Assembly: GCA_026461395.1 (NCBI GenBank)
Contig: JAPJNA010000048.1
Coordinates: 29,300-93,299 of the forward strand
Direction of reading: 5' to 3'
From: Chthoniobacterales bacterium
Lineage (GTDB): Bacteria > Verrucomicrobiota > Verrucomicrobiia > Chthoniobacterales > UBA6821
DNA: 64,000 nucleotides
The position numbers were made by a program, and so were the translations under genes. Within the stretch, counting starts at the first letter, position 1. Each line of letters begins with the position of its first letter. Positions 7,044 to 58,970 of the stretch are shown in pieces. The notes under the pieces are model-generated. The model ran no database searches, had not been told where the DNA came from, and saw only the letters and a list, made by a program, of their open reading frames with translations.

Positions 7044-7090
7044 CCGGCACGAATTCCCCTCCGCCCGGTTCGGGGATCGAGCGGACCGGT

Positions 7091-7504
7091 ATGCTGGATG
7101 CCTTTGCCCACGACACCCGCGAAGATGTCTTGGTGCTTGCGATGTTCGAGACCCGTTCATGGGAGCATGGAGAGCGACAACTCTTCCAACTCCAGGAGAA
7201 GCTGAATGCCTATGTCTCCTTCATCCTAGACGGTGAGATGAAGGAAAACTTTCCCCATCTGCAGGGAAAACCTGTGCGTATTGAACTCCGTACTTCCGAG
7301 GAACCTTCTGAGAAGGCAATGGGCTTTCTTGGAAGGGCCCGCGACCAACTCGCACTCCAGCAGATCAGCCTTGAGGTTGTCGTGATCGGCGAAGTTGATG
7401 CAGACAGTGGGGGTTGCTGCGGAGGAAATGCGGAGACCGGGTGCTGCGGCAGCTCTCAGGTTGTTGATCAGCAGGCGAATGGTTCCTGCGGGTGCGCCCA
7501 TTAA
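7091..7504 (+). CDS. hypothetical cytoplasmic protein with Cys-rich C-terminal tail
   Basis: ORF 7019..7504. The ATG at 7091 avoids overlapping DUF420. The tail DADSGGCCGGNAETGCCGSSQVVDQQANGSCGCAH contains two vicinal CC pairs plus CGC-AH. Confidence 0.5.
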   Translation: MLDAFAHDTREDVLVLAMFETRSWEHGERQLFQLQEKLNAYVSFILDGEMKENFPHLQGKPVRIELRTSEEPSEKAMGFLGRARDQLALQQISLEVVVIGEVDADSGGCCGGNAETGCCGSSQVVDQQANGSCGCAH

Positions 7505-7524
7505 TTTCGCCATCTTTTCAGCCC

Positions 7525-9435: not shown

Positions 9436-9453
9436 GCTTTCTAGGGCCAACCC

Positions 9454-9801
9454 ATGATTGTCGAACGACTCAAATACATTATCTGGGCAGCGGACACCAC
9501 CCGAGCCGTTACCTTCTACACCACGGTCTTCGGTGGGAAAGTGATCCGAGAGAATTCAGCGGTGACCGATATCGAGGTCGCTGGCGGCATCATTGGCATC
9601 CATGGCGGCGGCGAGGGAAAACGCACCTGGACCGGAATGAGCTTTCAGGTGGCCGATGTCATCGAAAGTGCCGCGGAGATCGTCGCTGCGGGTGGGCAGT
9701 TGCTGCGTGAACCGCAACCTGAGAATGGGGAACCGCCGCACCTGGCGATGTGTGTGGATACTGAGGGCAATGAAATTATGCTCTCCCGCAAGAGAGGCTA
9801 A
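9454..9801 (+). CDS. VOC/glyoxalase-family protein
   Basis: 115 aa. Its size and beta-alpha-beta-beta-beta-like pattern (AVTFYTTVFGG ... IGIHGG ... CVDTEGNEIML) resemble glyoxalase/bleomycin-resistance folds. Confidence 0.65.
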   Translation: MIVERLKYIIWAADTTRAVTFYTTVFGGKVIRENSAVTDIEVAGGIIGIHGGGEGKRTWTGMSFQVADVIESAAEIVAAGGQLLREPQPENGEPPHLAMCVDTEGNEIMLSRKRG

Positions 9802-10589
9802 TTCATCTCGACACGTTGGAACGGTTCAGACGAAATCGTTGCCCCTCCTATGAATGGAACATCCAGATCAATAATGATGTAAAAAGTCAGGCAGATCACT
9901 CCAGTTAGTACGATGGTAAGAATGGCTTGAAGCCAGAAGTTTTGAGCTTCAAAGAGATAAGAAAGGCCGACGGTGGCAACGGCGCCAACCAGTAGAACCA
10001 ACCAAAGAACTGGAGGAAGGCTGGATGAGGAGTCATCAATGCGCGATGCTCTTAGGCTGTTCATAGCAGTGAGACATTCGATTGAGGTGTGGAAGAAATC
10101 TTTTTCCTGATCGTTACTCGGTTTAAAGCGCAAATACGCTTCTCCTATTTTCTGCAGTCCTTGAATCGTTCTCGGGCTGGCCTCTCCCTTTTCCAAGCAC
10201 TTCCACTCATCATTCACCAAGGAATCGCGATAATTGCGAAGGAGTTGTTGAAGGTCCCCATGCGTCGGTTGAGGGAATGCCTTGGTCACGAAATAGAGAT
10301 CTCGGAGATAACGTGCTTCCTGGACGAGATTCGTAGAGGTTGTGGAATAGGCCTGCCAAGTCGCGGTGAACACGAAGGCCAAAAAAATGCCATAGACAGT
10401 TCCCAGCGTGCTGAAAAAAGGTCCTGTGACGTCATGACTCTGCTTGAGAAAACGCAAGGGGACCGCTTTTCTGAAAAGATAGAGTCCAATGAGCGAGAGG
10501 AACATGGGTGGGAGCACGCACAATGCCAACAACTCCACCATGGAAAGATCGAAGCAAAGAGACTGCTCCAGACTCATGGCGCCTATCAT
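9798..10589 (-). CDS. DUF4239-like (bestrophin-like) membrane protein
   Basis: 263 aa. Two N-terminal and two C-terminal TM helices flank a soluble helical region. Assigned from recollection of the family pattern only. Confidence 0.55.
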   Translation of the reverse strand: MIGAMSLEQSLCFDLSMVELLALCVLPPMFLSLIGLYLFRKAVPLRFLKQSHDVTGPFFSTLGTVYGIFLAFVFTATWQAYSTTSTNLVQEARYLRDLYFVTKAFPQPTHGDLQQLLRNYRDSLVNDEWKCLEKGEASPRTIQGLQKIGEAYLRFKPSNDQEKDFFHTSIECLTAMNSLRASRIDDSSSSLPPVLWLVLLVGAVATVGLSYLFEAQNFWLQAILTIVLTGVICLTFYIIIDLDVPFIGGATISSEPFQRVEMN

Positions 10590-10597
10590 GAAAATGT

Positions 10598-12598
<2,001 letters not shown>

Positions 12599-31076: not shown

Positions 31077-31403
31077 TTAACAGGCGCACCGAAGCCTGCG
31101 GTTGTTGGAGCTGGAGATGAGATCGATGCAGCGGAAGAACTCCGTGAAGCAGGGGCAGGCGATCTGGTAAAAGACCTGCAGGCCACGCTTCTCGCAGACA
31201 AGGAGTCCGGCTTTTTTCATGATTGCCAGGTGCTTGGAGAGAGTCGTCACGTCGCAACCTGCCATTTCCGTGAGATCGTTCACGCAATGCTCACCTTGCA
31301 TCAGGGCTTCCATAATCAGGAGGCGCGTGGGATGGGCCATCGCCTTCACGATGGAGGCGCGGACCGTAGCATTGGATTTCAGCTTCTGAAGTTTTGGAGG
31401 CAT
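31077..31403 (-). CDS. arsR: ArsR/SmtB-family metalloregulator with a C-terminal Cys cluster
   Basis: 108 aa. Winged-helix core AMAHPTRLLIMEAL ... VTTLSKHLAIMKKAGLL. The canonical ELCVCDL site is reduced to EHCVNDL. The C-terminus carries CPC ... C ... CAC. Confidence 0.85.
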   Translation of the reverse strand: MPPKLQKLKSNATVRASIVKAMAHPTRLLIMEALMQGEHCVNDLTEMAGCDVTTLSKHLAIMKKAGLLVCEKRGLQVFYQIACPCFTEFFRCIDLISSSNNRRLRCAC

Positions 31404-39053: not shown

Positions 39054-40679
39054 ATGATTCACTCGCGTCATCATCCCGATCAAGGCCCGTGGACGCGCCT
39101 TAAAAGCGCACTGGATCTCGATCCCCGTGACGTGGGGATGATCCTGGTTTTCGCCCTTTGCGTTGGACTGCTCTCCATCGCGGCTCCTGTGGCGATCGAG
39201 ACTCTGGTGAACACTGTCGCGTTTGGCGTCCTGCTCTGGCCAGTGATTGCCCTGGCTCTGGTGATGCTGACACTGCTCCTCATCTCGGCCTCGCTCAAGT
39301 CACTCCAGTTCCTTGTCGCGGAGTATCTCCAACGGCGCCTCTTTGTCCGTTACGCCGAGAAGTTCTCCGCACATTTCTCGCGCGCCGAGATCTCAAGCTT
39401 TGAGGGCCGCAATGCGGGCGAGCTTGCGGATCGTTTCTTCGAGGTCTCCTCGGTTCAGAAAGCCTTGGCTGGCCTCTTAGTTGACGGTGTTAGCATCGTG
39501 ATGCTCACGATCGTCGGCCTCATCCTCCTCTCCTGCTATCACCCCTATCTGCTGAGTTTCGCCCTGATCCTTGTGGTTGCGGTGGTTGTGGTGACCATTG
39601 TATTTGGGAGAGGTGGTGTCTCCTCCAGTATTGCGGAGAGTTATGCAAAATTCGACCTCGCTGGATGGATCGGCGAAATCGCCCGCTCTCCCTCCCTCTT
39701 CCGTGCCGGAGCGATGCAGGATCTCGCCCTCAACCGAGCCCGCACACATACAGCCGACTATATTGTCGCGAGGAAATCCCACTTCCGCATCGTCTGGCGG
39801 CAGACACTCTTTGTGATTTTCTTGGAAGCCATCGCAAGCTCCCTCCTCCTGGGTCTCGGCGGGTGGCTGGTGATCAACCGGCAACTCACGCTCGGCCAAC
39901 TTGTTGCTTCCGAACTGATCGTGACTCTGATCCTGGCGGCTCTGGCCAAGACCGGAAAACATCTCGAGTCCTTCTATGACCTTGAGGCATCGCTTGATAA
40001 GCTCGGGGTCATCGACAGCTTCACCTTGGAGCCCGAAGGAGGGGAAGTCCTGCTAGCATCCGGAAAGCCCCTCTCCGTTAAGGCAAATTGCCCCAGCCCC
40101 GCAGGGGAGATCTCGTTGGATGCGCCCTCCGGTTCTAAGATCGCCCTGCTCGGTGCTCCTGGCAGCGGCAAGTCTCGGTTCATGGAAACCCTCTCCCTCC
40201 TGCGCGCTCCGGAGGGGTCGCGGGTTACCTTTGACGGGATCAGTTCCCAGGCCTTGGATCGGGCCGCGGCCCGCAGACTGATTGCCAACGCCGGACGCGG
40301 GGAGGTGTTTTCCGGGACGATCGTTGAGAACCTCCGTGCCGGCAACGCGGAGATCGGCGTCGAGGAGATCCGTGAAGCCCTCAAGGATGCGGGTCTATCC
40401 GCCCGCATTGCCTCGCTCCCTTTGGGGATGGCCACACCTCTCTCCTCCACGGGATGGCCGCTCTCCACCTCCGAGTCAGTCCTGCTGGGCATCGCACGAG
40501 CCATCTTGGCTAAACCCCGCCTCTTGCTGCTGGACGGAACACTCGATCTCCTGGATCCCGCTCTGCATTCCGAGCTGATCGCAAAACTCTCCTCTCCGGA
40601 CGCACCCTGGACCCTGATCGTGGCCACGACCAGGCGCGATGTCGCCGAGCGCATCGGCACCACCGTCACGTTACCATGA
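39054..40679 (+). CDS. ABC exporter-type protein (TMD plus NBD) with a degenerate ATPase domain
   Basis: 541 aa with a type I exporter membrane domain. Walker A is intact (GAPGSGKS). The signature is LSTSES instead of LSGGQ, Walker B is LLLLDG (no catalytic Glu), the H-loop is IVATTRRD (no His), and the Q-loop position lacks Gln (ANAGRGEVFSGTIVENL). Confidence 0.75.
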   Translation: MIHSRHHPDQGPWTRLKSALDLDPRDVGMILVFALCVGLLSIAAPVAIETLVNTVAFGVLLWPVIALALVMLTLLLISASLKSLQFLVAEYLQRRLFVRYAEKFSAHFSRAEISSFEGRNAGELADRFFEVSSVQKALAGLLVDGVSIVMLTIVGLILLSCYHPYLLSFALILVVAVVVVTIVFGRGGVSSSIAESYAKFDLAGWIGEIARSPSLFRAGAMQDLALNRARTHTADYIVARKSHFRIVWRQTLFVIFLEAIASSLLLGLGGWLVINRQLTLGQLVASELIVTLILAALAKTGKHLESFYDLEASLDKLGVIDSFTLEPEGGEVLLASGKPLSVKANCPSPAGEISLDAPSGSKIALLGAPGSGKSRFMETLSLLRAPEGSRVTFDGISSQALDRAAARRLIANAGRGEVFSGTIVENLRAGNAEIGVEEIREALKDAGLSARIASLPLGMATPLSSTGWPLSTSESVLLGIARAILAKPRLLLLDGTLDLLDPALHSELIAKLSSPDAPWTLIVATTRRDVAERIGTTVTLP

Positions 40680-42106
40680 GCAGCAGCCAACCGCATGACG
40701 ACGGCTGTAAGCCGGCTGATCCAGTGACACGGGAGGATCTAACGCGCGCGACGGAAACCCCGCCCATTGTGCGTCAGATTTCCAAGATCGTGCTCTGGTG
40801 CATGGCCGCCTCCCCCTTTGTGCTGGCATTTGTCCCGTGGCAGCAAACTGTGCAGGGTCGCGGCACCGTGATCGCCTATTCGCCTGTCGAGCGCTCCCAA
40901 GTGCTGACGGCTCGGATTCCAGGCCAAGTGCGCAAGTGGCACGTCGTCGAGGGATCCATCGTCAAGAAAGGCGATCCTGTGGTCGACCTTGAGGACAATG
41001 ATCCGGATCTCGGCACCAGGCTGACTGCACAGTTGGAGTTTCTTAAAGGACGTCTCTTGGCCGGTAAACAGGAAGTGACGGAACTAAGTGGCGCCGCTAC
41101 GGCCACGGAGGCTGCCCGTGAATCAGCTGTTAATGCCGCCAAAGCCAATCTTGAATCAACCCGCAAGGCGATCGAGGTGGCTGATCATGTCCTCTCCAAC
41201 GCCCAGTACTCCAAGACCTTCGAGCAGACCCGTTTTGACATGATCGACAAGCTCCATTCCGGCGGAACGCTGGGGGCGATCGAGAGCAAGCTTTCACGCG
41301 AGGAGGCCAAGCTGCGCATTGACCGCGCCTCCATCGACGTGAGACGAGCAGCCGCAGAGTTGGATCGCGCGAAGGCCGCCTACCTGACTCAAGAGGCACA
41401 AGTCCTTCAGACGGATGCCGCTGGAATCTCTTCGATTGCGGTAGCGAGAAGCAATTTCCGGAAGGGAGAGCAGGCGCTTTTCACCACGGAACGTGAGGTG
41501 CAGGACATCGAGAACCGGGTGGAGCGCTTCAAGTCGCGGCACGTGGTGGCTCCCTGCGATGGAGTCGTCTTCCGAGTTCACGCCAATGTGGGCGGTGGTG
41601 GACAGTACCTCAAGGAAGGGGACGAACTCTGCACGATCATTCCCGACACAAAGGACCGGGTCGTCGAGCTCACGCTCGACGGACGCGATGCTCCTCTGGT
41701 TCTCGCTTACGCTCATCGTAAGGGATCTCTGCCACAGGCACGCCTTCAGTTTGAGGGGTGGCCGGCCATCCTCTTCTCCGGATTCCCCGATGTGTCGATC
41801 GGCACCTTCGGAGGAAAAGTCCGGCAGATTGATCAGGCTAGTGGCGCGACCGGTGGATTCCGAATCCTAATCGAACCAGAGCACCATGTTCCGGGTGATG
41901 ACTGGCCCGACTCTAATTTCTTACGACAAGGAAATCAGGTGGTGGGTTGGGTCTTTCTCAATCGGGTGCCGCTTGGATACGAGATTTGGCGTCGTCTGAA
42001 CGGCTTTCCGCCAGTCCTCCCTCCCACTTCCAAGGAGAAGAAATCCGGCTCTCCGGACAACAAGGAAGAGGAGAAAGCGAAAGCGCCGAAGATCAAGGTT
42101 GGCTGA
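40676..42106 (+). CDS. HlyD-family membrane fusion / secretion protein
   Basis: 476 aa. N-terminal TM (IVLWCMAASPFVLAFVPW), lipoyl-like hairpin (GQVRKWHVVEGSIVKKGDPVVDLED), long coiled coil and a beta-barrel C-terminus. It overlaps the ABC gene by 4 nt. Confidence 0.8.
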   Translation: MSSSQPHDDGCKPADPVTREDLTRATETPPIVRQISKIVLWCMAASPFVLAFVPWQQTVQGRGTVIAYSPVERSQVLTARIPGQVRKWHVVEGSIVKKGDPVVDLEDNDPDLGTRLTAQLEFLKGRLLAGKQEVTELSGAATATEAARESAVNAAKANLESTRKAIEVADHVLSNAQYSKTFEQTRFDMIDKLHSGGTLGAIESKLSREEAKLRIDRASIDVRRAAAELDRAKAAYLTQEAQVLQTDAAGISSIAVARSNFRKGEQALFTTEREVQDIENRVERFKSRHVVAPCDGVVFRVHANVGGGGQYLKEGDELCTIIPDTKDRVVELTLDGRDAPLVLAYAHRKGSLPQARLQFEGWPAILFSGFPDVSIGTFGGKVRQIDQASGATGGFRILIEPEHHVPGDDWPDSNFLRQGNQVVGWVFLNRVPLGYEIWRRLNGFPPVLPPTSKEKKSGSPDNKEEEKAKAPKIKVG

Positions 42107-46982: not shown

Positions 46983-48542
46983 CTAGTGTCCCGAACCCGA
47001 CGTTGGTTCAGGGAGAGAAACGCCTTCTACAATGACCCGCAAACCCCTCGACTGGGAGTCCATGACAAAATCGGAGAGCGTCTCCAGAATATCCTGATCA
47101 ATGAACGTCGCCCGTTTGCCATCGATGGTGACGTCGGATCCGGGGACAATGGAATCCAGAAGTTTACGGAGGTAGGCCTTGTTCAGGAAAGAGACATCCT
47201 TGTTAAGTCGCAGGAGATAGCTTCCCTCGTGGAGGGTGAGCGAGAGGGAATGGTGGAAGTTGGCGTGCAGGACAAAGAGGAGTCCGATCGCCATGCCGAT
47301 TGCGATTCCAAAAAGGAGATCCTCCAGAAGGATTGCCACAATAGTGATAATAAAGGGGAGAAACTGGTTCCAACCCTTGGCGAACTGCTCACGGAACAGC
47401 GACGGCTTCGCGAGTTTGTACCCGGTCTGAAGCAGGATCGCAGCAAGGCAGGCCAGCGGGATAGTATTGAGTTGGGCGCCGAGAAAGAGCACGGCAAGCA
47501 GAAGTAGCACGCCATGGAGGAAACTGGAGATCTTGGTCTGACCCCCGAAGTTGATGTTAGCGGAACTGCGGACGATAACCGCCGTGAGCGGCAGACCTCC
47601 GATCAGGCCGCTGAGCATGTTCCCGAGCCCCTGTGCCTTGAGCTCGCGGTTGGTGGGGGCGACTCGCTTGTGCGGGTCGAGTTTGTCGACCGCCTCGATG
47701 CTCAGGAGGGTCTCCAGGCTTGCGACCACGGCCAGGATCACGGCTGTCTTATAGACGAGAGGATTGCCGAGTGACTTGAAATCGGGTAAGTGGAACTGGC
47801 TGAGGAACTCCAGGGGAGAGGAGAGCGGTGGGAGTGAGACCAAGTGCTTGGGCTCGATTACCAGCGCAGGGAAATAACGCGCTGCGGCAGCGTTAAAAAG
47901 GACACCCCAGATGACTGCGAGGAGAGGAGCCGGGACCATGCGCAGGATCGCATGGCGACGGATGAGTGGCGCCTCCCATGCGAAAAGTAGGCAGAGAGAG
48001 CTGATGGTGACCAAGGTCGCTCCCCAGGAGATTCCACGGATGGCATTTGTCAGAATCTCAAAGGTCACGCCGGCGCTGTCCCTCATATAAGACTCGTCGC
48101 CCTCCATGCTAGTATCGAAGCCTGTGGCATGGGGGATCTGCTTCATGATCAGAATCAGTCCGATCGCCGAGAGCATTCCCTTGATCACCGCAGAGGGGAA
48201 AAACGCACCGATCGTTCCCGCCCGGGCATAGCCCAGAATCACCTGAAGTACCCCCGCCAAGACGACGCTCATCAGGAAGGCATTAAATCCGCCAAGCGTC
48301 TCGATGGCCGAGAAGACAATGACCGTCAACCCTGCCGCCGGGCCCGAGACGCTGAGCTGGGATCCACTCGCCCAGGCGACCACGAGACCACCTACCATAC
48401 CTGCGATCATTCCTGAGAAAAGAGGAGCCCCGGAGGCCAAGGCGATGCCTAGACAGAGGGGAAGGGCGACCAGAAAGACGCCGATGCTGGCGGGAATGTC
48501 CTGACGGAGGTTATCTAGATAGTAGCGGGGTCCGGTATTCAT
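46983..48542 (-). CDS. SulP-family anion transporter with C-terminal STAS domain (possible bicarbonate transporter)
   Basis: ORF 46983..48734 trimmed to ATG 48542 (MNTGPRYYLDNLRQDIPASIGVFLVALP), which avoids overlap with the carbonic anhydrase gene. SulP blocks plus a STAS-like C-terminus. Confidence 0.85.
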   Translation of the reverse strand: MNTGPRYYLDNLRQDIPASIGVFLVALPLCLGIALASGAPLFSGMIAGMVGGLVVAWASGSQLSVSGPAAGLTVIVFSAIETLGGFNAFLMSVVLAGVLQVILGYARAGTIGAFFPSAVIKGMLSAIGLILIMKQIPHATGFDTSMEGDESYMRDSAGVTFEILTNAIRGISWGATLVTISSLCLLFAWEAPLIRRHAILRMVPAPLLAVIWGVLFNAAAARYFPALVIEPKHLVSLPPLSSPLEFLSQFHLPDFKSLGNPLVYKTAVILAVVASLETLLSIEAVDKLDPHKRVAPTNRELKAQGLGNMLSGLIGGLPLTAVIVRSSANINFGGQTKISSFLHGVLLLLAVLFLGAQLNTIPLACLAAILLQTGYKLAKPSLFREQFAKGWNQFLPFIITIVAILLEDLLFGIAIGMAIGLLFVLHANFHHSLSLTLHEGSYLLRLNKDVSFLNKAYLRKLLDSIVPGSDVTIDGKRATFIDQDILETLSDFVMDSQSRGLRVIVEGVSLPEPTSGSGH

Positions 48543-48607
48543 AGTGCTGTCGGTTTCACGCCACCTTAGGCGGGACAAGGGAATGCTCTCACGGTAGAGG
48601 TGAGGGA

Positions 48608-49264
48608 TCAGTCGTTGTAACGATAGATGTTCTCCATAGGGGCATTGTAGTTGAGAGTGATCAGCTCTTTGAGCAAGCCGTTCTCCAGACCATAGACCCA
48701 GCCGTGAAGGGTCGGGGCCTTGCGCTCCTTCCAAGCCGCCTGGATTATCGACGTGTGTGCCAGATTGTTCACCTGCTCAATGATATTGAGCTCAATCATC
48801 CTGTTGGTCCTCTGATCCGGTGGGAGGGCCTCCAGTTCGGCCTGATGCAACCGGTAGATGTCCTTGATATGAAGAAGCCACTTGTTGGCGATTATCAGGC
48901 CGTTGTCTTGGCGACTCAATGCAGCTTGGACGCCGCCACATCCGTAGTGACCGCAGACGATGACATGCTCTACCTTCAGTACAGAGACTGCGTACTGGAG
49001 AACACTTAGGCAGTTGAAGTCTGTGGTGATGACCTGATTGGCGATGTTGCGGTGGACGAAGATCTCGCCCGGTTGGGCGTTGACCACCGTCTCGGCGGGA
49101 ACACGGCTGTCGGAGCACCCGATCCAGAGGAACTTGGGGCGCTGCTCCTTAGCTAGATTGTGAAAATACTCTGGTTCGTGGCTGAGGATTGCCTCGGACC
49201 AAGCCTTGTTCTCGAGAAGAAGCCGGGTAGTCAGGTCGTCGGGATTGAGTGCATGTTTGTCCAT
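48608..49264 (-). CDS. can: beta-class carbonic anhydrase
   Basis: 218 aa. Zinc ligand motifs CSDSRV and HYGCGG. Confidence 0.9.
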   Translation of the reverse strand: MDKHALNPDDLTTRLLLENKAWSEAILSHEPEYFHNLAKEQRPKFLWIGCSDSRVPAETVVNAQPGEIFVHRNIANQVITTDFNCLSVLQYAVSVLKVEHVIVCGHYGCGGVQAALSRQDNGLIIANKWLLHIKDIYRLHQAELEALPPDQRTNRMIELNIIEQVNNLAHTSIIQAAWKERKAPTLHGWVYGLENGLLKELITLNYNAPMENIYRYND

Positions 49265-50760: not shown

Positions 50761-51441
50761 ATGGAGACTCTCTTCACCCCCGCACATATCCATCTGGCCA
50801 TTAACCATGTCCCGATCATCGGCCTGGCTGTCGCCTGCCTGCCTGTCCTGATCGGTATTCTCTTCCATAGTCGTGGAGCCCTTGCTTCCGGCCTGCTCGC
50901 CGTGATTCTGTGTGCCGGAACCATGCCCTTCATCATAGAGACGGGAGAAGAGGCTTATGAATCCTTTGTTGATGGATCGATCAGTCCCGGGATGGATGTT
51001 GCGGGCAAAGCTGCCTTCCGGGAGCACAGCCATCGTGCCAATTTCACCGCCCCTGTGGTCTACGCTGCGGGGATTCTGTCGCTGGTGGCGCTTCTTGCCC
51101 TAATCAAGTTTCCCCGTCAGGCCGCATGGATCGGCTGGGCTGTTCTCGTGGGAAGCGCTCTCTCCATCGCCCTGAGCGTCTGGACGGCAGAGGCCGGAGG
51201 CCGGATCCGACATCCGGAGTTCCGACCCGAACTGAAACCGACTGCTCAACCTCAACAACAAGGACAAGGCGCTCCCTCGGTGCCAGAACTTATGCCCTCA
51301 CCCTCAACTTCGCCCTCACCTTCGCCGTCACCTTCAGCAAGCATGACTCCCCTGCCCCCTCTACCCGCGCCGCCGGCCTATGTAGTGCCAGGCACCTTAC
51401 TTGCGCCAGCAGGATCAGGTGCCGCTCCCACGACGAACTGA
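50761..51441 (+). CDS. four-TM membrane protein with Pro/Ser-rich C-terminal tail
   Basis: 226 aa. The N-terminus HIHLAINHVPIIGLAVA is followed by hydrophobic helices. The tail reads PSPSTSPSPSPSPSASMTPLPPLPAPP. Confidence 0.5.
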   Translation: METLFTPAHIHLAINHVPIIGLAVACLPVLIGILFHSRGALASGLLAVILCAGTMPFIIETGEEAYESFVDGSISPGMDVAGKAAFREHSHRANFTAPVVYAAGILSLVALLALIKFPRQAAWIGWAVLVGSALSIALSVWTAEAGGRIRHPEFRPELKPTAQPQQQGQGAPSVPELMPSPSTSPSPSPSPSASMTPLPPLPAPPAYVVPGTLLAPAGSGAAPTTN

Positions 51442-51646
51442 GTGAGCGCTCAGGATGATCGCATGGATCATCTCGCTGGAGAGATCCATGAGCAGGCTGA
51501 CAAATCCCAAAACCCAAATTCCTCGAGGAATAGCGCTGCGACTCAGAATAGAGCGGACTAGATCCTTTCTCACAACGGCAACATATCTCCAGTGTTGTTC
51601 AAAAACCACGCCTTTGGTTTCTCGAAAACAACTTGGTCAAAAATAG

Positions 51647-51668
51647 TCAGGGGGATTTCTCCGTGTGC
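51647..51668 (+). promoter_or_regulatory. conserved promoter-like motif, copy 1 (candidate ECF-sigma-dependent promoter)
   Basis: TCAGGGGGATTTCTCCGTGTGC lies ~55 nt upstream of the Cys-rich peptide gene. A near-identical element is at 53291-53314. Confidence 0.4.
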
Positions 51669-51723
51669 GGTGAATTACTTCTGGAACGGGAATAGTTCCC
51701 GCTCTCAACAAAACACCACACAC

Positions 51724-51888
51724 ATGAAAACATTGATCAAAGTGGGCGCCATGCTCGCCCTCATCGCTGGACTCGGACTGGCCACCGTCTCCGCTGCGGA
51801 TAGCTGCAAGGCCTGCAAGGGTTGCGCAAAGAGCTGCAGCTCCTGCGCGAAGTGCTCGGATGGCAAGTGTGCTTCTTGCTGTAAGTAA
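51724..51888 (+). CDS. 54-aa secreted Cys/Lys-rich micro-protein (metallothionein-like composition)
   Basis: Internal ATG of ORF 51592..51888: MKTLIKVGAMLALIAGLGLATVSA|ADSCKACKGCAKSCSSCAKCSDGKCASCCK. It has a signal peptide, and the ~30-aa mature part carries 9 Cys and 6 Lys. Confidence 0.6.
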   Translation: MKTLIKVGAMLALIAGLGLATVSAADSCKACKGCAKSCSSCAKCSDGKCASCCK

Positions 51889-51960
51889 CGAGATCATTCA
51901 ACGTGGCGGAGGTGGTGCTGAAAAAGCCTGCCTCCGCCCGCTGAGTTTCTTACCTTCCAA

Positions 51961-52263
51961 ATGATGAATCCTATGAACGAACTGACAGACCTACTGCAGG
52001 AGTGGACTCCGAACGCAGAGCCTGGTTCCGGTTTTAACCGTTCCGTCTGGGCTCGCATCGAAAACGCCGAGAGTAGCGGTGCTATGGGCTTATCCTTCTT
52101 CTCTTGGCTCCAGCGGCTAGCTGTGCCCCGGATTGCAGTGACCTGTGTTGCCGTGGCCCTCTTCGGCGGCATTTTGGTCGGAGGAATGCAGGCCCGTTCT
52201 TCTGAAGAGGAGCGCTATCTTCTCTCGTTGAAACCCTTCGCCTCCGTCACGCACTCGCACTGA
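51961..52263 (+). CDS. small single-pass membrane protein, candidate anti-sigma factor (CnrY-like position)
   Basis: 100 aa. A ~50-aa cytoplasmic N-terminus, one TM helix (IAVTCVAVALFGGILVGG) and a short periplasmic tail. It lies directly upstream of the periplasmic sensor-like gene and the ECF sigma gene. Confidence 0.5.
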   Translation: MMNPMNELTDLLQEWTPNAEPGSGFNRSVWARIENAESSGAMGLSFFSWLQRLAVPRIAVTCVAVALFGGILVGGMQARSSEEERYLLSLKPFASVTHSH

Positions 52264-52273
52264 TTCTCGATCC

Positions 52274-52705
52274 ATGAAACGCGGCTTTCTTATTCTTCTG
52301 GTCGTGATCATCGCAGGAGTCGGAGCGGCCTTGGTGACGAGAAATCTTTTGCGAGGTCCATCCTCGGCATGGCTTTGCCATCAATACGGACTCTCTCCTC
52401 AAAAGGCAGGAACGATCGAGGGGCTACAACAACAATACGGCTCTCGATGCGGCCCCTACTGCAACCAGATGTGCGAGGCCAATGCCCGTCTCGAACAACT
52501 CTCGCTGGAGGCTGGGCTAGGCAAGCAGAGTATCACTCCGGCACTCCGTGAGGCCGTGGCGGAGACCGATCGTATCCGTACCGAGACACGGATCGTGATG
52601 CTCGAGCATTTTTATGCCGTGGCGGGAGAACTCCCTCCCGAGAAACGCAGGGCTTATTTGCTCAAGGTGCTTCCCTTGGTGATCGACTCCTGCGGCTCAC
52701 GATAA
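52274..52705 (+). CDS. membrane-anchored periplasmic heavy-metal-sensor-like protein (Spy/CpxP/CnrX superfamily)
   Basis: 143 aa. N-terminal TM anchor, then a helical pattern with LGLSPQK ... and ... LPPEKRRAYLLKVL, typical of the LTPEQ-repeat Metal_resist family. It carries C35-H36 and C59-x3-C63-x3-C67. Confidence 0.6.
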   Translation: MKRGFLILLVVIIAGVGAALVTRNLLRGPSSAWLCHQYGLSPQKAGTIEGLQQQYGSRCGPYCNQMCEANARLEQLSLEAGLGKQSITPALREAVAETDRIRTETRIVMLEHFYAVAGELPPEKRRAYLLKVLPLVIDSCGSR

Positions 52706-52718
52706 AGGGACCCCTTTC

Positions 52719-53273
52719 ATGTCCGAAACCGAACAGGAGGACCGTGACGCGATGGCTCTTCTGGCTGGCGGAGAGGATCTCGCTCTCAATGCGATCATGG
52801 AGCGCTGGAAGAGTCGCCTCATTGCCTACCTCTACCGCTTCACGGGGAATGAAGCGACGGCCTTAGAACTGGCCGAGGAAACCTTCGTGAGAATCTATCA
52901 AAGCCGGGCAAAATTCCGGGCGGGCGGTCAGTTCTCGACCTGGCTCTTTGGCATTGCCGCCAATCTGGCCAGGAACCATCTTCGCTGGCAAAGACGCCAT
53001 CCGACGGTTGTGATCGAGGAGGCCGACACCGTGGCCTCCGAGGGGGATCCGCTAAAGGCTGTCGAATCACGGGAACGCGAGCAGGCCGTGCGCACGGCCA
53101 TCGCCGCCCTTCCTCCTGACCTCCGTGAGTCCTTAATCTTGAGCGAATACGAGCAACTCTCCCAGTCCGAGATCGCTGTCATCGCAGGATGCTCGGTTAA
53201 GGCAGTCGAGCGCCGACTCAGTCATGCCAGGGAACTTCTAAGAAAAGAACTCTCACGCTATCTGCGTGGTTGA
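52719..53273 (+). CDS. ECF (group IV) RNA polymerase sigma factor
   Basis: 184 aa. Region 2 (LIAYLYRFTGNEATALELAEETFVRIY, FSTWLFGIAANLARNHLR) and region 4 (LILSEYEQLSQSEIAVIAGCSVKAVERRLSHAR). Confidence 0.9.
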   Translation: MSETEQEDRDAMALLAGGEDLALNAIMERWKSRLIAYLYRFTGNEATALELAEETFVRIYQSRAKFRAGGQFSTWLFGIAANLARNHLRWQRRHPTVVIEEADTVASEGDPLKAVESREREQAVRTAIAALPPDLRESLILSEYEQLSQSEIAVIAGCSVKAVERRLSHARELLRKELSRYLRG

Positions 53274-53290
53274 AGAAATTTTGATAAATA

Positions 53291-53314
53291 TCACGGGGGA
53301 TTTCCCCGTTTTCA
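53291..53314 (+). promoter_or_regulatory. conserved promoter-like motif, copy 2
   Basis: TCACGGGGGATTTCCCCGTTTTCA lies ~200 nt upstream of the 99-aa secreted Cys/His protein gene. It shares AAATA..TCA.GGGGGATTTC.CCGT.T.C with copy 1. Confidence 0.4.
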
Positions 53315-53517
53315 CTCGGGATGTTCAAGCTAGCGAAGCAGAGATGCCTCGGAATCTGGGGTAAGTGTTTTTATTAGGGGGAGGTAAGCGCTTCCACTCC
53401 TATCGTGCCTCCCCCTCGTGGTTTAAGTTGCCTCACAGTGGAATCACCCACACCTCCAAAGCCGGTTCAAGGCGGAACGGGTCATGGAGCAACAAATAAA
53501 CCGCCAATCAAAACCCC

Positions 53518-53817
53518 ATGAAAAATAGAGTCCGTTTCCTATCAGCGGTGGGAATGATGAGTCTTCTCACCATCCTGCCCTCCCAATCGTCATTCGCGGC
53601 ACCTCCCAAGGATGGAGCCGTGATGTGCGATAAGTGCAAAATGGTCATAGTGAAAGTCCCGAGCCGCGTCACTGCAAAGAGTCAAACGGTCGTCTACCAT
53701 GATGTGAAGACCATGGAGTGTCCTGACTGCCACTCGGCCATGGAGAACTTCTTCAAGACCGGCAAGCTCAAGCACACCTGCACCCATTGCGGTGGAACAA
53801 TGACTGTCTGCCACTGA
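53518..53817 (+). CDS. 99-aa secreted protein with three CxxC pairs and a terminal C-H
   Basis: Signal peptide MKNRVRFLSAVGMMSLLTILPSQSSFA, then CDKC ... CPDCH ... HTCTHCGG ... VCH. Confidence 0.6.
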   Translation: MKNRVRFLSAVGMMSLLTILPSQSSFAAPPKDGAVMCDKCKMVIVKVPSRVTAKSQTVVYHDVKTMECPDCHSAMENFFKTGKLKHTCTHCGGTMTVCH

Positions 53818-54009: not shown

Positions 54010-54768
54010 TTAGTGGCTTTTTGTAGCGGCACGTTGAGGGATTGTCACCATGATGACTCCCATGATGGCGAGTAAGACCGCGGATGCGGTGAATCGACTC
54101 AGAGCAAGGCCGCCATGGTCATGCGGCTTGTCTAGGAAATCCCCGACCACTGCTCCTAGGGGACGCGTCAGGATGAAGGCGGCCCAGAAGAGCAGCGTGC
54201 GCGACAGGGATGTCTTCCAGTAAGTAACTGCCACGATTACAAGCAGACCGCCGAAGATCGCCGCGCTACCCAAGTATCCTAGGCCCGCGGAGTCTGAAGT
54301 CCAATCACCCAGAGCCGTTCCCAGAGTCTGGGAGCACATGATCGTGAACCAATAGAAGAGCTCGGCCTTGGGCGTGTTGACAGTCTCTACGGCCACAGTG
54401 CCCAGGGTCTTCTTCCAGGCATAGAGCGATGCCAGCAGAAGGCCGAGAAGCAAGGCCGATCCTCCCGTGTAGCCGATGCCGAGCGATCGGTCGCAGAAAT
54501 CGGCCAGCGTAGTACCGACTGTCGTTGTGGCGATGATGGTCACCCAGTAAATCACCGGATAGAATTTCTTTGCAAAGATCTGAGTCAGGACCGCAATCAC
54601 GAAGATCACCGCAAAGATTCCTGTGCTCAGGAGATAACCCAGATTGAGAGACATCGAGACGGCATCTCCGCCGGTCTCCCCGAGCGTGGTGGATAGAATT
54701 TTTAGCACCCAGAAGCCCATCGTGACTTGGGGAACTTTGCTGAGGGATCCGTTTGTCTGCCTATTCAT
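54010..54768 (-). CDS. eight-TM membrane protein built from four internal repeats (COG4705-like)
   Basis: 252 aa. Four repeats of (F/Y)W-x6-T/S-x-G-x3-(G/A)D ... LG(Y): GFWVLKILSTTLGETGGDAV, IYWVTIIATTTVGTTLADFC, FYWFTIMCSQTLGTALGDWT and LFWAAFILTRPLGAVVGDFL. Confidence 0.6.
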   Translation of the reverse strand: MNRQTNGSLSKVPQVTMGFWVLKILSTTLGETGGDAVSMSLNLGYLLSTGIFAVIFVIAVLTQIFAKKFYPVIYWVTIIATTTVGTTLADFCDRSLGIGYTGGSALLLGLLLASLYAWKKTLGTVAVETVNTPKAELFYWFTIMCSQTLGTALGDWTSDSAGLGYLGSAAIFGGLLVIVAVTYWKTSLSRTLLFWAAFILTRPLGAVVGDFLDKPHDHGGLALSRFTASAVLLAIMGVIMVTIPQRAATKSH

Positions 54769-54795
54769 GTGTTGCCTCCACTGTTACCATTCAAG

Positions 54796-56811
54796 TTACG
54801 TCTCAATATCCTTGGGAAGCTTCAGAGCCAGCAAGCGGAGACTGTTCAGTACCACCAGCAGAGTGCTTCCCTCGTGGGCGGCAACGCCCAAGGTAAGGGG
54901 GACTGGAAAGAAAAAAGCGCTGCAGACCATGACGACCACGGTTCCTAGGGCGACCACGATGTTCTGGTTGATGATCTTCTTGGCTTGAACGCTCAAGAGG
55001 CGGGCCAGCAGGAAATTCTCTATTCGATCGTTCATCAGCACAACCTCCGCCTGTTCGAGGGCGGCGTCGGAGCCTCGGGCCCCCATGGCCACGCCAACAT
55101 CGGCGGCCGCGATACAGGGCGCGTCGTTCACTCCATCCCCGATCATGGCGACGCGGACACTCCCCCCTTCTTTGAGGTTCTCGATAGCCTCGACTTTTCC
55201 ATCGGGTGAGAGTTCGGAGAGAATCTTGCCGATCCCGACTTTCTCACCGATCAGTTGGGCCGCCTCCCTGTGATCGCCGGTGAGCATGACCGTACGAACG
55301 CCCTGCTCATGAAGCCTGCGCAGGGTGGTGATCGATGCAGCGCGGATCTCGTCCGAGAAAATCATCCGGCCGAGGAGTCCCCTCCCCGCTACCCAGACGA
55401 CCGCGCCAGCTGACTTCCCTGCTGGGGGAAGATCGTCTTCGTGGAAGCCGCCCAGCCCGAGGACGAGCTTACGGCTACCCATCACAAAGGTCTCCCCATC
55501 GATATCAGCACGGACTCCCTTGCCTAGGATGGTTTGGAAGTTCGCCACCTCCATGGCGGGGATACCCCATGTCATGGCGATCCGACGGATCGCCCGGGAG
55601 AGCGGGTGCTCGGAGAGGCGGGCCAAGGAATGGGCCACTGAGCGAAAACGGGTTTCATTTCCCTTAAAGATTTCGACTTCCGCGAGGGTCAGGTTTCCCG
55701 AAGTCAGGGTGCCGGTCTTATCGAGGGCCACGACACCGATATCTGCCAGCGTCTCGATGGCCGCACCTCCCCGGTAGAGGATGCCGCGTCGCGCCCCACT
55801 TGCGATCGCCGAGAGGATCGCCGAGGGGACCGAGAGGACCAGGGCGCAGGGAGAGGCCACCACCAGCAAGGTCATCGTGCGATAGAAGGCGCTGGCCGTG
55901 CCGTCACGTTTCTCAAACGGCGCGAGGCCCAGTAGCAGCCACCAGACAAAGAACATGATGGTACAGATTAAGAGGATCGTCCACGTGTAGCCCGTGCCGA
56001 ATCGGTCCGTGAAGCGCTGGGAGGGGGCCTTCAGGTTCTGGGCATTCTGGATGAGGCGGATGATCTTCTGCAGGGAGCTCTCGCTGGCTGCCCTAAGAAC
56101 CCTTCCCTCCATGACTCCCCAGAGATTGATTGTTCCAGAGAGGGCTGTGTCTCCGAGGCGCTTCGATACCGGCATGGCCTCACCGGTCATGTTCGACTCA
56201 TCGCAGGCGCTCTCCCCCTTGATCACCTCCATGTCGGCAGGGATCTGTTCCCCGGTAGTGACGAGAATCACCATGCCGGGTGTCAGCTTCTCCACCGGAA
56301 CGGACTCCTCGACTCCATTGCTGAGGACACGTGCGGTCTTGGGGGCTCCGCGGAAGAGCGCGTCGATGGCCTTCTTGGTACGCCCCATCGCGAAGTGCTC
56401 CATGGCACCCGAGGCAGAAAAGAGAAAGAGAAGCAGGGCCCCCTCACGCCAGGCGCCGATCACTCCCGCTCCGACAGCCACAGCAAGCATCAGAAAATGG
56501 ACGTCGAGTTGTCCTTTGCGAAGGCGTTCCCAGGCATCGCCTGCCGCATCCCATCCCCCGCAGAGGTAGGCCAAGAGATAGAAAACCGTGGCACAAGCTC
56601 GGTTGTGGAAGAGAAGTTCACTGATCAGGCCCAGCCCTCCAAAGACGAAACACCCGGCCGCCAGAATAGCCATCAAACGCCACTCCTCGTGGTCATCTTT
56701 CTCTTCATTTCCTAATGGGGAGCGTCTCCGCGCGACATACTTCACCCAATACTCAGAGCATCCCCCTCTCAGTCGAGAGATCAGGGAGGGAGTTGAATCC
56801 TCGGTTGGCAT
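54796..56811 (-). CDS. heavy-metal P-type ATPase, P1B-4 subtype (Co/Zn/Fe-class exporter)
   Basis: 671 aa. DKTGTLT phosphorylation site, TGD, GDGVNDAP. The TM4 motif is SPC (VVASPCALVLSVP) and the final TM carries HEGSTLLVVLN. There is no N-terminal HMA domain. This combination defines P1B-4 pumps. Confidence 0.9.
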   Translation of the reverse strand: MPTEDSTPSLISRLRGGCSEYWVKYVARRRSPLGNEEKDDHEEWRLMAILAAGCFVFGGLGLISELLFHNRACATVFYLLAYLCGGWDAAGDAWERLRKGQLDVHFLMLAVAVGAGVIGAWREGALLLFLFSASGAMEHFAMGRTKKAIDALFRGAPKTARVLSNGVEESVPVEKLTPGMVILVTTGEQIPADMEVIKGESACDESNMTGEAMPVSKRLGDTALSGTINLWGVMEGRVLRAASESSLQKIIRLIQNAQNLKAPSQRFTDRFGTGYTWTILLICTIMFFVWWLLLGLAPFEKRDGTASAFYRTMTLLVVASPCALVLSVPSAILSAIASGARRGILYRGGAAIETLADIGVVALDKTGTLTSGNLTLAEVEIFKGNETRFRSVAHSLARLSEHPLSRAIRRIAMTWGIPAMEVANFQTILGKGVRADIDGETFVMGSRKLVLGLGGFHEDDLPPAGKSAGAVVWVAGRGLLGRMIFSDEIRAASITTLRRLHEQGVRTVMLTGDHREAAQLIGEKVGIGKILSELSPDGKVEAIENLKEGGSVRVAMIGDGVNDAPCIAAADVGVAMGARGSDAALEQAEVVLMNDRIENFLLARLLSVQAKKIINQNIVVALGTVVVMVCSAFFFPVPLTLGVAAHEGSTLLVVLNSLRLLALKLPKDIET

Positions 56812-57012: not shown

Positions 57013-57987
57013 TTAGAACATTAAGCTAGCAACAACCTTCACAGTGCAGGGGGCGATCAACTGAGCCCCGACAACATTGTTCATCACGGGCAACTCGGCG
57101 TCGGCATAGATTCGGATCTTTTTGAAGTCGAACTCGATGCCGGGTGAGAGCGAGAGCTGCTGATAGCCGGAGTTGCCGGTGTTGGCCGCAGGCCCGTAAT
57201 CGGAGGCTTTGTTGGCAAAGAGGACCTGCCCGATGGGGCGGATCTTCACGCCCCCCAGACCAAGTCCCGTGTTGTAGATGCCCGCTGCTGCATTCACAGC
57301 CAGGCCAGGAATGTATCCGGCTTGGTTGGCAACCGGAGCGTCGAGCTGTGCCTGACTAAACCAGGTCCAGTCGCTGTTTTTCGCAAACTTATGGTAGTGA
57401 AAGTAGCCGAAGAGGATATCCATGCTGCCGGTGCCGATCTGGTTAGCTCGTGAGACATTTTGCTGCTGCCAGTAGCCGGTAGGCAGTTTGAGTCCCAAAT
57501 TGAATCCCGTGTTCATGTTCTCGTTCTTTGAGAATCCGGTGTAGAGGGCATTCACCTGGATGTCTCCCATTCCCCACCATTGGGTGGTGGTTGGGGTGTG
57601 GACATGCACATGCTTTCCATTAACCACCTTATTGGAGGCTGCCTCGTAACGGTAGAAACGCTGTGCATAAGGAACCGTCAGTGATGCGCCCCAATTATTG
57701 TTCCAGTAGTATTGCACGCCCTGGGTGAGCCAGGAGGTCTGCAGAAGTTCGTCGTGGTTCCTTCCCGCCCCCTTGCCTACTTTCTTCAGACCCTGCCAGT
57801 TCTGGCTTTGGGACATGAAGGTGTATTGAGTCCAGGCAATGCCGCCGGGACCGTTTGGGAAGAGGTAGCTGGTACCGACGTCTTGAGAGGTGCCGCATCC
57901 TGCGCTGCAGGCCAGTACAGATGGGGAAAGAAGGTTAAGGGCAAGCAGCAGGACAGCTGCGAGGAATGTAGAGAAAAGAGATTTCAT
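57013..57987 (-). CDS. outer-membrane beta-barrel protein (MetA-pathway/transporter-like family)
   Basis: 324 aa. Signal peptide ending SVLA|CSAGC, Gly/Tyr/Asn-rich strands and a C-terminal aromatic residue (VVASLMF). Confidence 0.65.
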   Translation of the reverse strand: MKSLFSTFLAAVLLLALNLLSPSVLACSAGCGTSQDVGTSYLFPNGPGGIAWTQYTFMSQSQNWQGLKKVGKGAGRNHDELLQTSWLTQGVQYYWNNNWGASLTVPYAQRFYRYEAASNKVVNGKHVHVHTPTTTQWWGMGDIQVNALYTGFSKNENMNTGFNLGLKLPTGYWQQQNVSRANQIGTGSMDILFGYFHYHKFAKNSDWTWFSQAQLDAPVANQAGYIPGLAVNAAAGIYNTGLGLGGVKIRPIGQVLFANKASDYGPAANTGNSGYQQLSLSPGIEFDFKKIRIYADAELPVMNNVVGAQLIAPCTVKVVASLMF

Positions 57988-58163: not shown

Positions 58164-58553
58164 TTAAGCCTGGATGGGCACTGGGACGGGCGGAGCAAAA
58201 CAGAGCTCCGGCATCGAAACAAACGGTGCTGGCCCATATGTGAACGGGCTGGAAAGAGGAGAGGGCAACGCGGATCCCAAGGAGACAACAAAGACCTCTG
58301 CTTTCTTGTCGACCTTGACGGTGACGGGAGCTTTTTCCTCATGCGCTTGGGCTGAGGCAATTTTCTTACACATCGAGCAGGGGTGCTTGCCGTCGAAGGT
58401 CTTTGTGACGGCTTCAGCGATGGATCCTGTGCGGGAGAAGTCCTTCACCATCCCAGCCCACGCCACGCTATGGAGCATGGCCCAGTGACCGCCAGTAATC
58501 ATAAAGAGAGCCAGCGCCATCACCATGGTCATGATAGGGCGACGGACGTTCAT
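58164..58553 (-). CDS. small membrane-anchored protein with HW..LH..AW motif and CxxC
   Basis: 129 aa. N-terminal TM (MTMVMALALFMITGGHWAMLHSVAWAGM), then FDGKHPCSMCKK. First gene of the apparent operon with the OM barrel. Confidence 0.5.
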   Translation of the reverse strand: MNVRRPIMTMVMALALFMITGGHWAMLHSVAWAGMVKDFSRTGSIAEAVTKTFDGKHPCSMCKKIASAQAHEEKAPVTVKVDKKAEVFVVSLGSALPSPLSSPFTYGPAPFVSMPELCFAPPVPVPIQA

Positions 58554-58718: not shown

Positions 58719-58970
58719 ATGAAGTTGCACATTTTGACGGCTCTCGCATGCACTACGTTGCTCTCGGCAACCATCCATGCCGCCGAACCAATCCCCTATC
58801 CTTCGACAAAATGCATCGTGTCGGATGAAAAGCTCGGAGAGATGGGGCCACCCATCATGGTCGATTACAAGGGGCAGCAGGTAGGCTTCTGCTGCAAGTC
58901 GTGCATCGGTGACTTCGATAAGGAGCCCGCAAAGTATCTCGCCAAGCTCAAAGCTCCGGCCAAACCATGA
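58719..58970 (+). CDS. secreted YHS/TRASH-like metal-binding domain protein
   Basis: 83 aa. Signal peptide MKLHILTALACTTLLSATIHA, then KCIVSDEKL ... YKGQQVGFCCKSCIGDFDKEPAKYL, matching the YHS pattern C ... Y-G ... FC-x2-C-x3-F-x3-P-x-Y. Confidence 0.55.
   Translation: MKLHILTALACTTLLSATIHAAEPIPYPSTKCIVSDEKLGEMGPPIMVDYKGQQVGFCCKSCIGDFDKEPAKYLAKLKAPAKP

Follow-up and report, generated by a model that had tools for sequence, protein, structure and literature searches.

A conserved cysteine- and lysine-rich micro-protein with a predicted export signal leads a CnrYXH-like sigma factor operon in Chthoniobacterales and is a candidate periplasmic metal sponge

In a 64,000-nucleotide stretch of DNA from an uncultured Chthoniobacterales bacterium (assembly GCA_026461395.1, contig JAPJNA010000048.1; hereafter the window, meaning the whole stretch analyzed), a gene for a 54-residue cysteine-rich peptide opens an operon of four genes, in which it is followed by those for a CnrY-like membrane protein, a sensor modeled with the CnrX fold and an extracytoplasmic function (ECF) sigma factor (Table 1). 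The peptide belongs to an unannotated and rare family. We read it, with confidence evenly balanced between belief and doubt, as an ECF-induced periplasmic thiolate sponge or buffer for metal ions, similar in kind to a metallothionein. New here are this metal-sponge candidate and a variant of the CnrYXH-type module; the reality and context of the gene are solid, and the proposed chemistry and location are unusual.

The 30 residues that follow the predicted cleavage site (VSA/AD) have the composition C9 K6 S6 A5 G2 D2, with no other residue. They are 30% Cys and 20% Lys, and hydrophobic, aromatic, His, Met and Pro residues are all absent. An earlier note, written from the sequence alone, had counted nine Cys and six Lys in about 30 residues, and our recount of the mature peptide was identical. 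By composition, the 30-mer falls within the usual description of a metallothionein (low mass, at least ~15–30% Cys arranged in CxC, CxxC or CC, and few or no aromatics).

Relatives were sought through both the peptide and its neighbors. A word-indexed search of 5.8 billion proteins returned 14 relatives of the peptide at 62–94% identity, all sharing its signal peptide and Cys pattern, while an exact-sequence look-up of the 54-residue window peptide returned no record. Genome loci were found with the 143-residue sensor as bait, using one genome per species, which yielded 14 loci labeled nearly throughout as Spartobacteria, Chthoniobacterales or Verrucomicrobiota metagenome-assembled genomes; ten further metagenome loci were fetched through the peptide itself and not through the sensor. 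The open reading frame (ORF) was found at an unchanged position in each of the 14 genome loci and each of the 10 metagenome loci, with the same three genes downstream in all 24. Among the metagenome loci the four-gene order was identical and the left flanks were unrelated, and in one locus (L024) the ORF was extended upstream. The hosts are freshwater Verrucomicrobia, and none of them has been cultured. The earlier note would have given up its proposal if the ORF were lost in relatives that keep the ECF module; the opposite was observed, with the ORF present in every module-bearing locus examined.

All nine Cys columns were invariant across 18 distinct coding sequences, following the pattern C-x2-C-(x2)-C-x3-C-x2-C-x2-C-x4-C-x2-CC-K, to which an SCCK unit is added in some relatives, and the number of Cys in relatives was odd (9 or 11). 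Pairwise ratios of nonsynonymous to synonymous substitution rates (dN/dS) were 0.1–0.3 in the signal and mature parts alike (0.09–0.34 for the mature part), with dS up to saturation. Because the ORF is kept in 24 loci, its nine Cys are invariant and dN/dS is low, we conclude that positions 51724–51888 are a genuine gene under purifying selection. Judging from the alignment, gain and loss of the SCCK unit resembles modular expansion.

Neither Pfam nor NCBIfam matched the peptide at E ≤ 0.1, and a sequence search of the PDB found no relative. A ferredoxin-like CxxCxxCxxxC match in the PDB (E = 2) was discarded as chance, since the spacing is not kept (relatives have CxxCC) and Sec export excludes a preloaded Fe–S cluster. 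The AlphaFold2 (AF2) model of the peptide had a low-confidence predicted local distance difference test (pLDDT) score of 62.6, on account of which it was not taken into a fold search; its mature part was coil with no secondary structure. Built from no residues other than Cys, Lys, Ser, Ala, Gly and Asp, a chain of 30 residues can gain structure only via metal–thiolate clusters or disulfides.

The N-terminus of the peptide has two Lys, a 15-residue hydrophobic (h-) region and small residues at −3 and −1, a layout kept across all homologues, including distant ones with unrelated h-regions. With cleavage after position 24, the −3 residue is V, A or T in all relatives, each of which is allowed, whereas cleavage one residue later fails. 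Inspection of the relatives' sequences found no lipobox, with D, E or A at −3 before the first Cys. These features suggest a Sec signal cleaved by signal peptidase I (SPase I), in agreement with the standard signal peptide proposed earlier, and even distant homologues with different signals retain an AxA-type site. Because those homologues change the h-region but keep the layout and the mature motif, the mature peptide appears to be the selected part and the signal a generic export tag.

The order of peptide, 100-residue protein, 143-residue protein and sigma factor was constant in all loci, and the regulators that the earlier note had placed downstream are indeed there, ending with the ECF sigma factor. 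The 100-residue protein has a cytoplasmic N-terminus of ~45 residues and, on the periplasmic side, a short tail that is conserved (ARSxEERYLLSLKP). All loci agree in its position and architecture, which resemble the layout of CnrY-type (class II) anti-sigma factors; its sequence showed no similarity to CnrY and no meaningful Pfam, NCBIfam or PDB match.

The sensor could be classified more closely. The window sequence matched PF13801 weakly (E 7e-4; 20.1 bits, below the 29.2 cut-off), and precomputed PF13801 matches are borne by many of its 146 relatives. A profile of the sensor family matched NccX (E 6e-4) and CnrX (E 0.016–0.05) collinearly and over the full length. The AF2 model of the sensor had a pLDDT of 88, and the top 15 PDB matches returned by Foldseek were all CnrX or NccX (probability 1.0, target template-modeling score ~0.7), giving the modeled sensor a CnrX fold. 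Among the CnrX ligands H42, H46, E63, H119 and M123, the sole one kept is H119 (as H112); in the alignment H46 corresponds to C35, H42 to Ser, E63 to a variable Gln and M123 to Val. The sensor family has in addition an invariant RCGPxCxxMC motif, in which C59, C63 and C67 share a helix at i, i+4 and i+8, as well as DSCG at the C-terminus (C140), so that the full Cys/His set is C35, C59, C63, C67, H112 and C140. Most CnrX ligands thus appear, by alignment, to have been replaced by a conserved set of Cys.

Among solved structures, the sigma factor ranked closest by phmmer to 8z6g and 6in7 (8e-25), which we take to be AlgU-like ECF sigma factors, followed by Escherichia coli RpoE (9e-19) and CnrH of the ECF291 group (7.5e-10). 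Because the ligand set has changed, the sigma factor is nearer to RpoE and the 100-residue protein shows no sequence similarity to CnrY, the module is CnrYXH-like in architecture yet a distinct Cys-type variant.

Upstream of the operon lies a bipartite motif, GGGGGAT-N15-GAATYAC, whose sequence and spacing are strictly fixed in all related loci, 47–65 nt before the ATG. No sigma-70-type promoter was predicted in 51300–53600. One locus, L021, carries a second full copy of the motif (7010–7038) immediately after the sigma gene, at the head of a stretch (7010–11877) that continues with genes for a secreted protein of YHS type, an adaptor resembling CusB that includes a heavy-metal-binding domain (HMBD), and a CusA/CzcA-family resistance–nodulation–division (RND) pump (TIGR00914, 1053 bits). 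This second copy is also trailed by a 5' hairpin and a CA-rich leader like those of the peptide gene. L020, a close relative of L021, is without the arrangement of motif, YHS, CusB and CusA/CzcA. Because the copy in L021 mirrors the promoter pair cnrYp/cnrCp, we interpret the motif as the putative target promoter of the operon's own ECF sigma factor and infer that the peptide belongs to a metal-efflux regulon.

An exact match to the motif core (GGGGGAT-N15-GAATCAC) inside the sigma gene, at 53042–53070 on the forward strand, is probably coincidental, as it codes for the conserved EGDP..ES. The GCGGT that belongs to the full motif is lacking at this place, relatives have a degenerate version, and L011 has no such match, although L011 shares the downstream gene; an internal promoter for the gene at 53518–53817 is possible at this site.

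Two RNA hairpins bracket the peptide message. The first is predicted right after the motif in every locus despite differing sequences, and is followed by an unstructured A/C-rich leader without a Shine–Dalgarno sequence; it may act as an mRNA stabilizer or as an operator. A reading of this leader as RpoE-like (GGAAC-N15-TCTCA) was dropped because the bases vary among loci, so that pairing and not sequence persists.

The second hairpin directly follows the gene and had been described earlier as GGCGGAGG-N18-CCTCCGCC at 51905–51938, an element that occurs once in the window. It proved to be real and evolutionarily maintained, forming the core of a longer stem-loop at 51890–51952. The longer structure has a folding energy of −35.6 kcal/mol (z = −5.8 versus shuffles), 90.6% of its alignment cells are paired versus 41–53% in slid controls, and double changes occur in 9 of its 16 pairs, a value reached by 0 of 500 shuffles. 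It ends 9 nt ahead of the next start codon, has no T-tract and drew no intrinsic-terminator call, and is not a canonical terminator. An Rfam scan of 51300–52300 gave noise only. Strong hairpins are found downstream of stand-alone peptide homologues too, one of them a canonical terminator. Plausibly, the hairpin raises the ratio of peptide to regulators through partial termination, 3' stabilization or occlusion of the next start.

The wider family is small. An exhaustive hidden Markov model (HMM) search of 1.84 billion representatives gave only 14 clusters, and the strongest matches with fetched loci all sit in the four-gene cassette. Distant members (P0142 and P0144–P0146) have different hydrophobic cores and share the mature motif CxxCCKxxCxxCxxCxxGKCxxCCK. 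The gene for P0146 (locus L031), whose product has a different signal peptide, is flanked by the end of an RND pump gene on one side and by a gene for a secreted YHS protein on the other, with a P1B-ATPase gene opposite; this locus adds a further metal context, independent of the first. A profile built from the distant members picked up look-alikes at E 3e-3 to 9e-2 that combine a signal peptide with CxxCCKxKxCxxCCKGKCxEC. P0147–P0157 (loci L034–L041) are exported-type peptides of ~50 residues, one labeled Verrucomicrobiales and one found in 124 collection blocks, and are possibly related to the peptide studied here. A metagenome scan with the distant peptides found the known loci again and nothing further. 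Because the look-alikes checked (P0153 and P0154) occur as stand-alone genes elsewhere, small exported Cys/Lys peptides are a recurrent verrucomicrobial feature, one of which the Chthoniobacterales clade placed under a metal-sensing ECF module.

The sponge interpretation is favored because of five lines of evidence: the metal-sensor operon, the presence of its motif before an efflux operon as well, the second metal context, the metallothionein-like Cys–Lys composition, and the tolerance of changes in Cys spacing and of SCCK gain and loss. In the mechanism that we propose, a thiophilic metal would be detected by the sensor in the periplasm, and the operon would probably be transcribed from the conserved ECF-type promoter. 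With the 5' stem-loop and the strong 3' stem-loop bracketing its message, the peptide would probably be made in excess of the regulators. The precursor would be exported by Sec and cleaved after VSA. Unable to fold alone, the 30-mer would be expected to enclose metal ions in thiolate clusters whose charge, as in metallothioneins, is balanced by Lys. It could then act quickly in the periplasm as a first-line sponge or buffer during the induction of efflux systems, and the lowered free metal would exert negative feedback on the equally Cys-based sensor.

Several observations weigh against this interpretation. No homology to any metallothionein family was detected in Pfam/NCBIfam or PDB searches or by BLASTP, which gave E 0.17 against human MT2A. 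The metallothionein-like reading of the earlier note thus holds for composition, for the conserved gene and for the metal context, and does not extend to homology. Together with the conserved signal peptide, the lack of detected homology puts the peptide outside the known metallothionein families SmtA/BmtA and MymT. A Dsb-type system could oxidize the nine thiols to disulfides, and periplasmic copper sites are usually built from Met and His and seldom from Cys (PMC6851896).

Genomic context raises further objections. Because the family members P0142 and P0145 and the weaker look-alikes P0153 and P0154 are stand-alone genes in housekeeping contexts, the peptide type is not confined to metal loci. 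The nearest transporter in the window (54796–56811, reverse strand) is a heavy-metal P-type ATPase with SPC and HEGST motifs and without an N-terminal metal-binding domain, presumably the marks of P1B-4 (Co/Zn/Cd/Fe) pumps; the adjacent ATPase looks like that type and hence gives no pointer to copper. The window has no second copy of the motif before a metal transporter, and the motif could be the operator of a different regulator rather than an ECF promoter.

Among the other explanations, the one that survives best is a co-sensor or regulatory ligand, in which the metal-loaded, reduced or oxidized peptide docks on the sensor or on the CnrY-like tail and sets sigma activity, much as CpxP does with CpxA. 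Such a role is compatible with a sponge, and we hold it to be unlikely but a serious contender. It would account for the finding that close members of the peptide family were accompanied by the Cys-variant sensor in 24 of 24 loci and that the strongest matches with fetched loci all lie in the cassette, for the match between the peptide's chemistry and the Cys that replace ligands in the sensor (C35, which aligns with H46; C59/C63/C67; C140), and for the placement of the peptide within the regulatory operon, away from the efflux genes. It fits less well with the family members that occur without the module, and the flanking stem-loops suggest high expression, which is better suited to a stoichiometric binder than to a signaling ligand.

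A more specific form of this idea, which we regard as doubtful, is that the peptide and the Cys-variant sensor make up a two-part periplasmic thiolate sensing device in which the loaded peptide, and not the free ion, is read by the sensor. If true, such a device, with the peptide capturing soft metal or reporting thiol/disulfide damage, would couple buffering and signaling in one operon, a mode of ECF control undescribed so far.

The peptide could instead be a disulfide-rich secreted or envelope peptide induced by envelope stress, either a cationic antimicrobial or signaling peptide or an OmcA-like cross-linker, with one thiol left free. It is cationic and Lys-rich with an odd number of Cys, the AF2 coil is equally compatible with a small knotted peptide, and exported Cys/Lys peptides of weak similarity occur in other Verrucomicrobia as stand-alone genes with no metal genes around them; Verrucomicrobia and Chlamydiae also both belong to the Planctomycetes–Verrucomicrobia–Chlamydiae (PVC) group. 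We nevertheless judge this improbable, given that the sensor has a metal-sensor fold and that the motif precedes a heavy-metal pump. The loci examined contain no immunity gene or conserved dedicated exporter, and the peptide has no lipobox and no Pfam match to chlamydial families such as OmcA. Variable Cys spacing (CxxCxxC versus CxxCC) and SCCK turnover also suit a thiolate cluster better than a fixed knot.

Two remaining ideas are extremely improbable. A precursor of a ribosomally synthesized and post-translationally modified peptide (RiPP), with its Cys-rich core modified by a maturase encoded elsewhere, would agree with the short ORF, the Cys-rich C-terminal core and an ABC transporter/HlyD pair ~10 kb upstream, but the N-terminus has the form of a canonical Sec signal, AxA site included, and not that of a RiPP leader, the surroundings of the cassette, whose left flanks differ completely among loci, hold no conserved gene for a radical-SAM enzyme, a cyclase, a LanM-like protein or a peptidase-domain transporter, and the ABC/HlyD pair is not syntenic with the cassette; the doubt already voiced in the earlier note, which saw no maturase-type gene nearby, is therefore borne out. 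An attenuator leader peptide, functionless in itself, whose nine Cys codons in 30 would sense a Cys-tRNA supply depleted by thiophilic metals while the very stable conserved hairpin within a few nucleotides gates read-through, has scarcely any standing given that the signal peptide and the non-Cys residues K43, G47 and K48 are under purifying selection, that distant homologues keep the mature sequence without a downstream regulator, and that no alternative antiterminator pairing, T-tract or canonical terminator call was found.

Table 1. Coordinates of the cassette and of conserved neighboring genes in the window.
Feature	Position	Strand	Basis or detail
Bipartite promoter-like motif GGGGGAT-N15-GAATTAC	51650–51678	+	Invariant in related loci
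5' leader stem-loop GGA-CGGGAA-TAG-TTCCCG-CTC	51683–51705	+	Predicted hairpin
Cys-rich peptide gene	51724–51888	+	ATG at 51724, TAA at 51886–51888; 54 aa, MKTLIKVGAMLALIAGLGLATVSAADSCKACKGCAKSCSSCAKCSDGKCASCCK
Predicted signal peptide, residues 1–24 (MKTLIK, hydrophobic core, VSA/A)	51724–51795	+	Sequence features conserved
Predicted mature Cys/Lys-rich peptide ADSCKACKGCAKSCSSCAKCSDGKCASCCK and stop codon	51796–51888	+	9 Cys invariant
Intercistronic stem-loop, A-rich loop GAAAAAG	51890–51952	+	Fold energy and covariation
Single-pass membrane protein, 100 aa, candidate CnrY-type anti-sigma factor	51961–52263	+	Position and architecture only
Membrane-anchored periplasmic sensor, 143 aa, CnrX/NccX fold (modeled)	52274–52705	+	Profile and AF2 model
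ECF sigma factor, 184 aa, last in operon	52719–53273	+	Sigma70_r2 and r4_2 domains, TIGR02937
Outer-membrane-like protein, 324 aa, ends in F	57013–57987	−	59% identical to the gene abutting the cassette in L004
Membrane protein, 129 aa, HPCSMCKK motif	58164–58553	−	Neighbor set conserved with cassette
Secreted YHS-domain protein	58719–58970	+	Neighbor set conserved with cassette

The sensed metal is most likely copper or silver, with cadmium, zinc or mercury possible. Pointers to copper or silver are the YHS–CusB(HMBD)–CusA-like operon that L021 carries, the multicopper oxidase of L004, and YHS genes near the cassette, including the one in the window. A further pointer is a gene for a CusF–Sco1/SenC fusion in L024 (7020–7928, reverse strand), which lies convergently right after the sigma gene of the cassette.

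Directly after the sigma gene in the window (53518–53817, forward strand), and also in L011 (7244–7540), we observed a gene for a secreted 99-residue protein that has a signal peptide and eight Cys, of which three CxxC pairs account for six. In Pfam it matched Zn_ribbon_TFIIB marginally above the cut-off and a double zinc ribbon below it, and it is a putative exported Cys-based metal protein. Farther downstream on the reverse strand (54010–56811) are a DUF347 membrane protein gene and then the ATPase gene, without a copy of the motif. Relative to L004 and L008, the ATPase region and the zinc-ribbon gene form an insert that separates the cassette from the outer-membrane-like gene. None of the three conserved neighbors in Table 1 that follow the cassette is preceded by the motif.

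On the upstream side, a SulP-family transporter and beta-carbonic anhydrase pair (46983–49264, reverse strand) is also kept upstream of the cassette in L001–L003. In L004–L007, a tRNA-Val(CAC) gene (7794–7868, reverse strand) lies just upstream of the cassette; past it the four loci differ, carrying AbiE, SduA or restriction-like defense genes, or relaxase and type IV secretion system-coupling genes, and the site looks like an integration hot spot. Elsewhere in the window, a small Cys-containing ORF (31077–31403, reverse strand) appears by eye to encode a metalloregulator of ArsR/SmtB type, with a helix–turn–helix-like motif, CxxD and a C-terminal Cys. The ABC transporter (membrane and ATPase domains) and HlyD-family adaptor mentioned above are encoded at 39054–42106 on the forward strand; as an exporter of the peptide this pair was rejected, having no synteny with the cassette in relatives.

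Textbooks describe copper chemistry in the periplasm as based on Met and His, since thiols are expected to oxidize there. Full-text literature searches found no description of a periplasmic metallothionein, nor of such a peptide in ECF operons, and the ECF classification paper lists heavy-metal groups linked to PF13801 with no mention of such a peptide gene. If the sponge interpretation is true, there are diderm bacteria in which metals are buffered and sensed by thiolates outside the cytoplasm, and the bacterial repertoire of metal sponges gains a new, unannotated micro-protein family. With four genes, one short motif and a synthesizable 30-mer, the cassette is a compact system for studying how effector and regulator output under an ECF sigma factor are balanced from one transcript, and peptides of this kind could find use in capturing metals or in biosensing.

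The closest regulatory parallel is the nickel–cobalt system CnrYXH/NccYXH of Cupriavidus metallidurans, in which the gene order cnrYXH encodes a small membrane protein, a sensor and a sigma factor (PMC6851896). The module described here has the same gene order and sensor fold, with H112 equivalent to H119 of CnrX, and L021 likewise has one motif before both the regulatory operon and a heavy-metal efflux RND (HME-RND) operon, as with cnrYp and cnrCp. In contrast to cnr, it adds a cistron for a Cys-rich peptide, the linked pump in L021 is CusBA-like and not CnrCBA, the sensor has a Cys set in place of H42, H46, E63 and M123, and the sigma factor is less close to CnrH.

As regards the peptide itself, bacterial metallothioneins are, to our knowledge, few and cytoplasmic. 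The peptide is like SmtA/BmtA and MymT in its low mass, ~30% Cys in CxxC and CC, Lys beside Cys, absence of aromatics and expected metal-dependent folding; unlike it, those proteins are cytoplasmic and without a signal peptide, they show no homology to it, and SmtA uses His and has a zinc-finger-like fold. That thiolate metal sites are workable in the periplasm is illustrated by CopG, with a CxCC motif and a tetranuclear copper cluster, and by CueP, Sco1 and MerP (PMC7558416); these are folded domains with a single site or cluster, and none is a Cys polymer or is encoded in a sigma/anti-sigma operon. Csp1 is an exported protein of the Gram-negative envelope that binds multiple Cu(I) ions through Cys thiolates (PMC7558416), but it is a pre-folded four-helix-bundle tetramer exported by Tat, whereas the peptide is a predicted-unstructured 30-mer with a Sec signal and an unrelated sequence.

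The closest functional analogues of the proposed sponge are PcoE and SilE, small, exported and intrinsically unfolded proteins that are strongly metal-induced and have been proposed to sequester copper or silver in the periplasm as an initial defense, before efflux is fully induced (PMC7558416). They are ~140 residues long with Met and His ligands and unrelated in sequence, and PcoE is controlled by the two-component system CusRS; the peptide described here, by comparison, has 30 residues with Cys as the candidate ligand and is encoded at the head of an operon for an ECF sigma factor.

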